A stretch of 64,000 nt of DNA from Clostridia bacterium (lineage in GTDB: Bacteria > CBDUZB01 > JAGLHV01), in contig DAOVVV010000009.1 in NCBI GenBank assembly GCA_030637025.1, positions 268-64,267 on the forward strand, written 5' to 3'. The first letter of the stretch is position 1, and every line of letters begins with the position of its first letter. A program made the translations under genes and the position numbers. This document shows, in pieces, positions 1,732 to 63,826 of the stretch. The notes beneath the pieces are model-generated. The model made no database searches. It saw only the letters and a program-made list of their open reading frames with translations, and was not told the DNA's origin.

Positions 1732-1759
1732 ATATTAAAAATTTAAATTACTTTACGCC

Positions 1760-2866
1760 TTAAGCAAATTTCTTCTCTTTTGTTTTTTCATCTATAAATT
1801 CTTTAATTTCTTTTTTAAATCTTTCTCTTCCGAATTTTTGTGCACAACGACAAATAGACTTAGAATCAAAACCCTTTTCTATCTCTATAAATTTTCTTAT
1901 GCCTTCTATCAACCCCAAAGCAGTTTGTGGATGAAAAAAAATACCGGTTTTCTCATTAATTACTGTTTCCAGAACTCCACCCTTAGCATAAGCAATCACC
2001 GGCCTACCGGCAGCCATTGCCTCTACAGGAACAATACCAAAATCCTCTTCCCCTGGAAAAATAAGAGCTTTACTCCTGCAATAATAATCTTCCAGTTCTT
2101 CATCCGACTTCCAACCTAAAAATTCGATATTAGATTTAGCAATTTTTTTTAATCTTTTTTCTTCCTGTCCGACTCCGATAATTTTCAGAGAATAACCTAA
2201 AACATTAAATGCTTCTATAGCTAAATCTATCCTTTTATAAGGAGCAAAAGCAGAAACAATGAGATAAAAATCCTCTGCTATCCGATCATTGTTAAATTTG
2301 GCAACATCCACAGGAGGATAAATAACTGCGGACTCACGATGATAATGGTGTTCAATCCTTTTCCCTACATTTTTAGAATTAGCAATGAAATAGTCTACCC
2401 GGGAAACAGTAAGAATATCCCATTTCCTTAAATAAGAAACAAAAACAGACATAACTATTCTAACCAGAATATTAGATTTTTTCTTTCCAAAATACTGGTC
2501 ATACATATCCCAGATATACCGCATAGGAGTATGGCAATAACAAATATGCAAACTATCTCTTTTTACTTTAACCCCCTTGGCTACGCAATGGCTTGAAGAA
2601 ACAACTAAGTCATAATTATTTAAATTAAACTGCTCAATAGCTTTAGGCATTAGCGACAAATAATAACGGTATTTTTTTTTAACCGCGGGTAATTTTTGGA
2701 TAAACGAAGTAAAAATTTTGTGGCCTTCAATCACAGGGGAAACACTCCCCTTTATATGCACCAGGGTATAAATATCCGCATCGGGGAAAATCTCACAAAG
2801 AGATTCTAATACCTTCTCCCCCCCTCGCATCCCGGTAAGCCAATCATGTACTAATGCAACTTTCAT
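1760..2866 (-). CDS. Glycosyltransferase family 4 (WbaZ-like mannosyltransferase)
   Basis: MKVALVHDWLTGMRGGEKVL start; EDFGIVPVEAMAAG motif. Start moved to ATG 2866 because the longer ORF runs into a repeat. Confidence 0.9.
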   Translation of the reverse strand: MKVALVHDWLTGMRGGEKVLESLCEIFPDADIYTLVHIKGSVSPVIEGHKIFTSFIQKLPAVKKKYRYYLSLMPKAIEQFNLNNYDLVVSSSHCVAKGVKVKRDSLHICYCHTPMRYIWDMYDQYFGKKKSNILVRIVMSVFVSYLRKWDILTVSRVDYFIANSKNVGKRIEHHYHRESAVIYPPVDVAKFNNDRIAEDFYLIVSAFAPYKRIDLAIEAFNVLGYSLKIIGVGQEEKRLKKIAKSNIEFLGWKSDEELEDYYCRSKALIFPGEEDFGIVPVEAMAAGRPVIAYAKGGVLETVINEKTGIFFHPQTALGLIEGIRKFIEIEKGFDSKSICRCAQKFGRERFKKEIKEFIDEKTKEKKFA

Positions 2867-2905
2867 TATTGTATCCTTTTCAATAATATCATTTAACGGC
2901 AAAAT

Positions 2906-3167
2906 GAACCTCACCGTAGCAAGCTACGGGGGGTCAATCAATGTCATTCCTGCAAAAACAGGAGTCTATTCCTGTAGATTCCCGCTTTGCAAACTTTGTC
3001 ATAATTCTACTTTAGGTAGCCGCAGGCTTTAGCCTGCGTAATTTTTCCGACGATAACGAAACCTTCCTCCAAAGACGGACAAGAAAGGTTGCAACTACCT
3101 CATAAAAATATGAGTTATGACACAGTGTATTCGCAGGACTGACGCAGCAAGCTGAGGGAATTAGACA
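2906..3167. mobile_element. Nested cluster of non-autonomous palindromic elements (REP doublets, MITE-like ends, micro-insert)
   Basis: ccgtagcaagctacgg hairpin 2914-2929; gtcattcctgc arm 2943-2968; ends actttgtcataa 2993-3004 / ttatgacacagt 3115-3126; GTAG-REP doublet 3016-3098; 19-nt insert 3065-3083. Confidence 0.8.
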
Positions 3168-4148
3168 CTAAGCCCCTGACCTTTTAATTTCCTTTAAATC
3201 TGAATCAACCATCATTTTAACTAATTCTTTAAAATTAACTTTTGGATACCAACCTAATATTTTATTTGCCTTACTATAATCTCCTATAAGTTGATTAACC
3301 TCTGCCGGGCGATAAAACTTTTCGTCAATAATTACATATTTTTTCCAATTTAAATCAACATAACTAAATGCCAATTCTACAAATTCTTCAACCGAATGTG
3401 TTTCGTTTGTAGCAATCACATAATCATCACACTTTTCCTGCTGAAGCATAATCCACATTGCCTCAACATAATCTCCGGCATAACCCCAATCTCTCTTTGC
3501 TTCCAGGTTCCCTAACTTTAACTCCTTTTCTAATCCTAATTTAATTTTAGCTACAGTATTAGTTATTTTCCTGGTAACAAATTCAAATCCCCTCCGTGGG
3601 GATTCATGATTGAAAAGAATCCCACTACAGGAAAAAAGGCCATACGCTTCACGATAATTTCGAGTTAAATCAAACCCTGCAACCTTAGATATTCCGTAAG
3701 GAGAACGGGGATGAAAAGGCGTATCTTCCTTTTGAGGAATTTCTTTTACTTTACCAAACATCTCACTTGAAGCAGCAAAGTAAAACTTGCATTTTGGTGT
3801 TTTTTTCCTAATTGCCGATAAAACATGAAGGGTCCCATTTATATTAGTATCTATTGTAGAAAATTCATCGTCAAAAGAATAACTAACAAAACTCTGTGCA
3901 GCTAAGTGATAACATTCATCCGGCTTTACTTTTTCAACGACATTAAACACGCTGGCATAGCTTTCTAAAGAACCGGAATGTAAAATAATCTTATCTAACA
4001 GATGCTTTATCCTCCAAAGCCGGTGCTCAGGATCTTCAAGTGCTACACGCCTCACTAAGCCATTAACCTCGTAACCTTTTTTCAGAAGAAGTTCTGCCAA
4101 ATATGAACCATCCTGCCCTGTTATTCCGGTAATTAAAGCTTTCTTCAT
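3168..4148 (-). CDS. gmd: GDP-mannose 4,6-dehydratase
   Basis: ALITGITGQDGSYLAE, PRSPYG, FNHESPRRG, RDWGYAGDYV motifs. Confidence 0.97.
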   Translation of the reverse strand: MKKALITGITGQDGSYLAELLLKKGYEVNGLVRRVALEDPEHRLWRIKHLLDKIILHSGSLESYASVFNVVEKVKPDECYHLAAQSFVSYSFDDEFSTIDTNINGTLHVLSAIRKKTPKCKFYFAASSEMFGKVKEIPQKEDTPFHPRSPYGISKVAGFDLTRNYREAYGLFSCSGILFNHESPRRGFEFVTRKITNTVAKIKLGLEKELKLGNLEAKRDWGYAGDYVEAMWIMLQQEKCDDYVIATNETHSVEEFVELAFSYVDLNWKKYVIIDEKFYRPAEVNQLIGDYSKANKILGWYPKVNFKELVKMMVDSDLKEIKRSGA

Positions 4149-35840: not shown

Positions 35841-36025
35841 TAGACTTCTGCAAAATAACCTTTTTGCCTGCCCGCTCCGCCTCAGGCGCTTGTCCGCCTC
35901 TGGAGGAGATAAGGTGGGTCATTCCTGCGAAAGCAGGAATCTATTGATATTTAAAAACATTATAGATTCCGCATCGTCCGCCTCAGGCGGAGCGGAATGA
36001 CAGAATATTGTATTTTTCAAAACTC
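35841..36025. mobile_element. MITE-like element with a 15-bp target-site duplication, carrying a REP doublet and micro-hairpins
   Basis: Exact direct repeat ttaaaattgtcctta at 35826-35840 and 36026-36040; TIRs agacttctgcaaaata / tatttttcaaaactct (13/16). Confidence 0.88.
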
Positions 36026-63713: not shown

Positions 63714-63826
63714 GTAATGTCAAAAATGTTTGACATTATGACACAGTCTGTTCGCAGAAATGACAATAAGTGTATTTTAATGTAATCTTGTGTTTTCATT
63801 TTCTTTCATTCATTTTTTGACATTAC
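63714..63826. repeat. Palindrome plus relic MITE/REP junction upstream of DUF2339
   Basis: aatgtcaaa-N4-tttgacatt 63716-63737; ttatgacacagtct-g-ttcgcagaaatgac 63736-63764; cattttttgacattac 63811-63826. Confidence 0.6.

Follow-up and report, generated by a model that had tools for sequence, protein, structure and literature searches.

The window analysed here, a stretch of 64,000 nucleotides (C35:268-64267), belongs to a contig of a 2.36-Mb draft genome with 33.5% G+C in 77 contigs (G000), which was compared with the congeners G001-G003; the phylum is represented in the genome library by the species of G000 and these three only. Within a co-directional gene row, a spacer of about 300 bp separates gmd (3168-4148, minus strand) from a family-4 glycosyltransferase gene (called at 1760-2914, with a likely ATG at 2868). 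BLAST of 2880-3200 against the genome returned 172 matches, which split the region into separate repeat families. A sequence-only reading had placed five nested features here: two short palindromic hairpins, a REP doublet, an element with terminal repeats, a doublet of GTAG hairpins and a 19-nt insert. All five were located by sequence inspection and repeat finding, the insert exactly at 3065-3083 as claimed; the terminal-repeat element is present as well, but its ends, given as 2993-3126, are here placed at 2990 and 3129. With the reversed genome as control, the five layers are beyond chance, their motif counts lying far above the control counts.

Read from left to right, the spacer opens with the head of a repeat that we call D (2903-2942), made up of AATGAACCTC, a first D hairpin (2914-2929) and the linker GGGGTCAATCAAT; the same head and linker occur in 10 composite copies. 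An intact Ssn-type hairpin, S1 (GTCATTCCTGCAAAAACAGGAGTC, 2943-2966), follows on the plus strand and occupies 2943-2976 together with a 10-nt doublet spacer. Its minus-strand partner S2 is split: the left half GATTCCCGCT and a left target-duplication copy TTG (2987-2989) fill 2977-2989, and a right copy TTC (3130-3132) with the right half GCAGGACTGAC fills 3130-3143. Between the halves lies MITE E of subtype 2, 140 bp long (2990-3129), with terminal repeats at 2990-3005 and 3114-3129 and a length equal to the canonical 121 bp plus 19 nt. The core of E (3015-3099) is an inverted doublet of GTAG hairpins, F (3016-3098), around the spacer TAATTTTTCCGACGATAAC, and the loop of the second GTAG hairpin holds the 19-nt unit G (3065-3083), which reads CTTGTCCGTCTTTGGAGGA on the minus strand. 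The nest closes at 3144-3180 with a second, decayed D hairpin GCAGCAAGCTGAGGG (3144-3158) and the D tail AATTAGACACTAAGCCCCTGACC, the remainder of D being missing. The called gmd frame overruns by about four codons into this tail (window 3168-3180), its stop being taken there at 3168, and alignments to the congener gmd genes start only at 3179-3181.

The outer hairpins, of the ccgYagcaagctRcgg type, are copies of the head hairpin of D, a repeat of about 130-170 bp whose full form, from 17 aligned copies, is AATCAACTACCC-CGCAGCAAGCTGCGG-GGAATTAAACCCGAGACCCTTCGACTCCCT...GACTACAGAGTTTTTGTCAGC-ATA-GCTGACAAAAACTCTAAGTCTCATTGAA. The D motif occurs 39 times in the genome and 0 times in the reversed control, counted as strand hits, D being palindromic; its hairpin 15-mer gives 69 strand hits in the genome at up to three mismatches. 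Only the head and 22 nt of the tail are retained in the window. Elsewhere D occurs with a single hairpin or as D-X-D, in which the filler X is 29 nt long in 7 copies and consists of TATCAATCAAT plus an S doublet in about 10. The doubling of D may have been made when X inserted, or the single-hairpin forms may be deletions between two copies. Composites of the D-S-D kind, all with the same linker, number 10, of which 3 are uninterrupted, 1 is truncated and 6 carry E. With 10 occurrences of this arrangement as a unit, separate events for D and S are not required at this locus.

The S motif GTCAYTCCTGCGAAAGCAGGARTC is found at 86 sites (24-mer, up to four mismatches) and at none in the reversed genome, and the uninterrupted form of S2, GATTCCCGCTTTCGCGGGAATGAC, is present in the C7 and C53 copies. 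The REP doublet of the sequence-only reading is thus real, but the genes partnered with it are small GIY-YIG (Ssn-like) genes and not RAYT genes: perfect inverted S copies frame two of the four small GIY-YIG genes in the genome (C23:2109-2327 and C4:17059-17277), the third being framed by another hairpin type and the fourth by none. A search of PDB sequences with one of these small GIY-YIG proteins gave no match. In the parts of PMC11893778 that deal with them, the NTS/dRS3 repeats of Neisseria and their Ssn GIY-YIG nucleases show a similar picture: S resembles the NTS consensus CGTCATTCCCGCGMAVGCGGGAATCYRG, and the NTS-ssnA-NTS layout is matched by the inverted S copies that frame small GIY-YIG genes here. 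The main S variant differs in carrying a T-A pair at an NTS C-G position, and its TCCTGC stem fails the strict SRM pattern of that source at this one position; the pattern accordingly has 9 matches in the genome against 4 in the control, and the S2-type variant TCCCGC, which would fit it, is split in the window. By analogy, S resembles the Neisseria NTS or Ssn-related kind of hairpin, and Ssn-like cleavage is predicted for it. Beside the Ssn-like gene on C23, at G000:C23:2330-2460, lies a tandem array with four or more copies of the 20-nt unit GTCATTCCTTTTTTCATTCT, which begins like the 5' half of the S hairpin.

The consensus terminal repeat of E, CAGACTGTGTCAYAAY, has 66 matches in the genome against 4 in the reversed control, and each terminal repeat of the window copy differs from it at two positions. 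Paired ends define 16 gene-less copies with lengths of 85, 121, 140, 141 and 145 bp, and 15 of these 16 interrupt hairpins of the type ..TCCTGC-GAAA-GCAGGA.. in the loop, where the same three bases flank the element at both ends. Canonical S halves adjoin 35 of the 56 E ends that were found at up to two mismatches, compared with 167 of 20,000 random positions (0.8%), and at least 7 of the other 21 ends adjoin variant S halves when judged by eye. The triplets next to the ends are GAA (15), TTC (13), TTG (2), GGA (2) and others (3); the flanking triplet changes with the site, as in a true target duplication. The flanks of the window copy are unequal (TTG and TTC) and its ends are decayed, one copy of the target duplication having decayed. 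The six E-filled composites hold three different core subtypes of E, four of them in S2 and two in S1, so the composite has been struck repeatedly and independently. Subtype 1 has two S-like hairpins around nearly the same central spacer and subtype 3 has other GTAG hairpins; the E frame seems to exchange its hairpins. A solo E end is also present near the right edge of the window, at 63735-63750.

Once 2990-3132 is peeled off, the remaining 122 bp can be aligned over their full length with uninterrupted copies, at 103/122 identities to C4:25274-25400, 98/111 to the C7 copy and 98/116 to the C53 copy. Removal of the inner layers therefore rebuilds canonical forms, both the outer composite and, as set out below for G, the 121-bp E; and all the layers belong to repeat families with further members in the genome. 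Layers occur empty as well as filled, a check that the sequence-only reading had proposed. A join of 2983 to 3130 in runs X2 and X4 was considered as an allele of the locus and rejected, as it equals the paralogous empty copy at C4. With Rfam, 2700-3400 yielded no match but isrK, which at 15.6 bits fell below the gathering score of 50. Elsewhere, a motif, AATACTGTGTCACAAATAG, lies about 60 nt upstream of members of a 16-member gene family encoding proteins of about 580 aa with signal-peptide-like starts (sites beyond the window at G000:C35:68190, C11:1527, C12:802 and 2773, C36:11623, C58:3295, C60:622 and C75:25808). It shares ACTGTGTCACAA with the E ends, and since this core is a nearly perfect palindrome it could be the relic of an E end or else serve as promoter or operator.

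The GTAG hairpin F occurs 34 times in the genome and 0 times in the reversed control. Its 48 strand hits comprise 24 beside an E end, 6 partner arms of decayed E copies, 9 solo hairpins and 4 that form two doublets lacking E ends; the remaining 5 look unrelated. Every subtype-2 E has the same core, a GGTAG-hairpin followed by TTATCGTCGGAG.. and then by a hairpin-CTACC. With the doublet and its spacer forming the fixed core of this subtype, F came in with E, and what had been read as an insertion layer of its own is the ordinary core of one E subtype that travelled with it.

In its GTAG 5' end, its GC-rich hairpin and its occurrence as singlets and inverted doublets, F has the form of a REP, and it had been proposed as a RAYT substrate. 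REP/REPIN-RAYT systems are reportedly the subject of work by Bertels and Rainey. No RAYT gene flanked by F was found in G000: none of its three Y1_Tnp genes has an F site near it, two having terminal repeats of their own and one, on C73, being flanked by a different GTAG hairpin, GTAGGGACAGGGCTTGTCCCTGTCC. The accounts of REP/REPIN-RAYT systems and BIMEs in PMC2817692 and PMC3333891, so far as they go into structure, describe the same GTAG start, GC-rich hairpin and singlet or inverted-doublet arrangement, and F, like BIMEs and REPs, builds mosaics with other repeats. Unlike the REPINs of those accounts, F mostly rides inside a DDE-type MITE, and the link of F to a RAYT stays a resemblance. 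The C73 gene itself, a 178-aa Y1 (RAYT-like) gene at G000:C73:1825-2813 (L003:1081-2069), has GTAGGGACAGGGCTTGTCCCTGTCC hairpins on both sides, and after each of them about 150 nt of its own coding sequence recur as a near-duplicate.

Removal of G (3065-3083) restores the loop GAAACCT-AA-AGGTTGC and leaves 121 bp, which is both the canonical length of the E family and the length of the orthologous copy in G001. That copy lies in the same nest, lacks G and has its loop GCAACCT-AA-AGGTTGC intact. The G 19-mer (consensus CTTGTCCGCCTSTGGAGGA) has 14, 28, 11 and 5 matches in G000, G001, G002 and G003, respectively, at up to three mismatches, and 0 in all controls. An adapter or assembly artefact was considered and rejected, G having point variants and orthologous places in four species; contigs of runs X2 and X4, from the same study, also cover G without differences. 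A second copy in the window, at 35889-35907, lies inside a CCGCCTCAGGCG^GATAAGG repeat and adjoins an S hairpin. At L172 (G003) and L184 (G002), a 24-nt unit, CCTGTCCGCC..AAGGCGG, sits inside G inside an F loop. The G 19-mer has no match in the searchable literature text.

Whether G moves by itself bears on how the innermost layer arose. Tentatively, and at less than even confidence, we read G as a free-standing mobile unit, smaller than any described transposable element, that is copied letter-perfect into single-stranded spots (hairpin loops, repeats and IS91-family reading frames) across very different base compositions, the likely agent being an HUH-kind strand-transferase that recognises the small imperfect hairpin of G and an end-like target. 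The alternative is that G is not mobile alone, and that F with a 19-nt loop is a second F allele which spread with F and by gene conversion. This would suit the congeners, in which 15 of the 21 contexts listed are F loops (the others being three copies of a CCGCC repeat and three other hairpin loops), with G at one point in almost every case and usually in a single orientation; it would also suit the E copies of the window, C39 and C40, all with G in one and the same arm; inheritance or gene conversion, as opposed to repeated insertion, could explain their common site and orientation. An F allele sits less easily with G in F loops in both orientations and in 19-, 24- and 33-nt forms, without target duplication, with G in three other hairpin types, the loops of GCCCAAT and GGGTGGGC hairpins among them, or with G in the stem region of another repeat, ..CCGCCTCAGGCG^GATAAGG... 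Nor does it readily account for the metagenomes, where the exact 19-mer occurs in at least 121 contigs and at least 90 unrelated flank contexts with flank G+C from 0.29 to 0.63; hairpin-forming flanks were seen in 9 of the 121 contigs among the matches listed, and some contigs carry tandem arrays.

Reading frames also bear on this question. Among the matches listed, 10 G loci, which represent 8 distinct sequences, interrupt IS91-family transposase genes; the unit lies in the C-terminal tail at the same codon every time (..VIKKIL[19 nt]KHLGLWEV..) and breaks the frame. Only in these 10 loci, again among the matches listed, does the flank end like the unit itself (GAGGA). Pfam found no match for the 41-aa fragment upstream of G in L300, and the interrupted protein was identified by its homologues, which carry Zn_Tnp_IS91 and Y2_Tnp domains. 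Protein P0002 is identical to L300 on both sides of G and runs through uninterrupted, and thus represents an empty allele of the G site, a further point against an F allele, which we regard as doubtful. Among 397 genomes of other families there were 0 exact matches to G and 10 one-mismatch matches in 7 genomes, against 3 in the control; the lack of exact matches in this set argues against very wide spread. If G is the free-standing unit, it would move as single-stranded DNA through an HUH-kind strand-transferase, or be copied by templated repair; a link from G to a particular enzyme was not found.

The source of E was sought by scanning a 596-Gb genome collection, one genome per species, for exact E ends, which gave at least 128 loci. 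About 1,100 chance singletons are expected by arithmetic, so single terminal-repeat matches are uninformative, and the evidence used was confined to paired ends, ends beside S halves and multi-copy genomes. Among the matches listed, 56 of 135 ends have an inverted partner within 51-227 bp and 31 abut an S-type half hairpin; such ends occur in MAGs labelled Planctomycetota (Scalindua), Nitrospirota, Elusimicrobiota, Firestonebacteria, SAR324, Atribacterota, Omnitrophota and others. Pfam analysis of 19 ORFs beside unpaired ends produced one transposase lead, the DUF772 ORF at L061 in genome G041, which has 32 E-end matches against 1 in the control. All nine copies fetched from G041 are insertion sequences of 1,627-1,630 bp with ends CAGACTGTGTCATAAT / CTTATGACACAGTCTG, encoding a 486-aa protein, and E and this insertion sequence have the same 16-bp ends. 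The transposase matches NF033551 (IS1182 family) with 367.8 bits against a cut-off of 270, as well as DUF772, DDE_Tnp_1 and DDE_Tnp_1_6. At least seven of the nine copies lie in the centre of a palindrome (CCACGGGC..GCCCGTGG; CCTCCGAC..GTCGGAGG), and the flanks comprise direct 3-bp duplications at five of the nine, one match at two of three positions and three reverse-complementary triplets.

An IS1182-family partner with the same ends, which the sequence-only reading had proposed to look for, thus exists in G041, but none was found in G000-G003. The G041-type transposase has no match in these four drafts, in which repeats assemble poorly, nor by tblastn against G000. Within G000, a search for rve found none, PF01609 (DDE_Tnp_1) detected nothing but an unrelated IS4-like element, with an end unlike that of E, and a search for multi-copy ORFs returned the 16-member secreted-protein family and no transposases. 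Kilobase-spaced pairs of terminal repeats gave nothing convincing in G000, and none was seen among those listed for G001-G003. With no IS1182-family transposase found in the four genomes, E would have been mobilised in this lineage by an enzyme from an insertion sequence since lost or unassembled, or from outside. The IS4-like element is a second hairpin-seeking insertion sequence in G000: at C60:1-600 it lies inside the hairpin CCCCCTAACCCCC..GGGGG of another repeat, and it breaks the assembly at contig ends, also at C75:28151-28292, C71:1-136, C40:1-136 and C74:2-98.

Judged by its ends, E is apparently a MITE derived from an IS1182-family insertion sequence, and hairpin targeting by this family is already known: according to the portions of PMC4923244 and PMC5678879 that treat target choice, IS1272/TnSha1, of the IS1182 family in staphylococci, targets hairpins. 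As in the former account, E and the G041 insertion sequence land in hairpins or palindromes with little sequence requirement. Insertion of IS1272/TnSha1 is described there (PMC4923244; PMC5678879) as cutting the stem, with partial deletion of the target and no duplication, whereas E and the G041 element leave both arms in place, being inserted at the loop or centre, and usually show a 3-bp duplication; in addition, E is gene-less and its partner was not found in its own genus. Other insertion sequences that target REPs, among them IS1397/ISKpn1 (IS3 family), IS621 and ISPpu9/10 (IS110 family), likewise insert into repeated extragenic palindromes as harmless landing pads (PMC1525189). The families named in the relevant part of that source are IS3, IS110, IS4, IS256 and IS5, not IS1182; unlike those cases, the targets here are hairpins of the Ssn type, and what invades them is a MITE with REPs of its own. 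Use as MITE targets is absent from the description of Ssn-related hairpins in the pertinent sections of PMC11893778, and the 12-mer of the E terminal repeat matched only unrelated primers in the literature text.

With the layers identified, the number of events can be considered. The sequence-only reading held that five separate families had inserted serially at this spot, each into the hairpin of its predecessor, and all five types do exist separately: solo D, the 86 S sites, E with other cores, nine solo F and two F doublets lacking E ends, and G in several kinds of host. However, the F doublet with its spacer is fixed in every subtype-2 E, with which it came, and the D-S-D composite recurs 10 times with the same linker; about three events are left as supportable, and we consider five serial insertions improbable. 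The other part of that proposal, that non-autonomous elements insert into each other's hairpin loops by means of enzymes encoded elsewhere, holds up.

The congeners and a close strain record something of the age and fate of the nest. In G001-G003 a sugar-transferase gene and the spacer precede gmd, and the glycosyltransferase gene follows it; the window instead has the glycosyltransferase gene placed after the sugar-transferase and before the nest. One breakpoint of this gene's move (window 1756-2933, compared with L004, L005, L006 and L009) coincides with the left edge of the nest at about 2880-2934. In G001 the same S doublet is present, and the corresponding loop is filled in matching orientation by a subtype-2 E of 121 bp that lacks G; the E copies of the window and G001 are identical at 96 of 120 positions. 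G003 has a full-length single-hairpin D at the orthologous site and G002 a plain spacer of 125 bp. A local tree of two flanking gene fragments has the form (G000,(G001,(G002,G003))), with identities of 81-82%, 90-91% and 95.4%; as it places G000 outside, the 'empty' G002 spacer and the 'D-only' G003 spacer are explained more simply by loss than as earlier stages. A stepwise-gain series from G002 through G003 and G001 to G000 was rejected, G000 falling outside the other three. This comparison of sequences suggests that the nest is old and was later lost by deletion between repeats, as opposed to a recent build-up; the single D hairpin may arise by deletion between two D copies. A contig from run X5, from another study, has the gene order of the window; its flanks show 3 differences in 64 positions and 8 in 342, and in place of 2899-3158 it has 36 other letters. 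The existence of this strain shows that the nest is dispensable and variable among close strains.

Some enterobacterial REPs act as mRNA stabilisers or attenuators. That the nest is kept for such a function, as a compound hairpin in a gmd-glycosyltransferase transcript, would agree with its place in a co-directional gene row, with a single-strand fold of -40 kcal/mol against -26.8 for shuffles (z -3.65) and with the same nest at the 3' end of gmd in G001, whose neighbouring genes are about 19% diverged, but is very improbable given the close strain with 36 other letters in its place, the plain spacer of G002, the lone D element of G003, the good folding of any inverted-repeat pile, the divergence of E from its G001 copy at the neutral-looking rate of the flanks and a single terminator-like site that lies on the non-coding strand. 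A promoter and terminator scan of the nest gave nothing above shuffle level. In view of the close strain without the nest and the two congeners that lack it in whole or part, the nest is probably without selected function.

The reading that we prefer, and consider likely, is that the spacer is a pile-up of gene-less selfish repeats in which newcomers landed in earlier hairpins, with about three traceable events in an inferred order. The first would have been the outer composite, a D head with its hairpin doubled around an inverted S pair, which may have arrived as a unit or formed early. In the second, a transposase acting in trans would have put the 121-bp E, presumably cut down from an IS1182-family insertion sequence and already with the F doublet as its core, into the 4-nt loop of the second S hairpin, duplicating 3 bp; the IS1182 lineage of E would recognise the structure of a hairpin or palindrome more than its sequence. 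In the third, G would have gone into one of the GTAG hairpins of E, at its loop and with no target duplication. In plant genomes, MITEs insert into other MITEs. Those nested plant MITEs form Russian-doll structures of the same MITE-in-MITE kind, but they prefer certain sequences or open chromatin, whereas here hairpin loops are the target and the units go down to 19 nt.

The spacer offers a compact and well-controlled example of hairpin repeats serving as safe landing pads for other selfish DNA. Within 260 bp it links three enzyme worlds, those of Ssn-type hairpins, of an IS1182-type DDE transposase and of GTAG REPs, with Ssn-type hairpins as a preferred target of one widespread IS1182 lineage, whose 16-bp E-type ends also bound MITEs of 51-227 bp in MAGs that carry the labels of several phyla among the matches listed. 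Nests of this kind also matter for annotation, as they account for contig breaks, odd gene ends and local rearrangements. The main nesting mechanism is already known, and it is G that could change thinking. If G moves alone, it would set a new lower size limit for mobile DNA and give a handle on the unsolved spread of REP-like hairpins; if our reading of G is true, nesting would be the signature of a whole class of loop-invading mini-elements.
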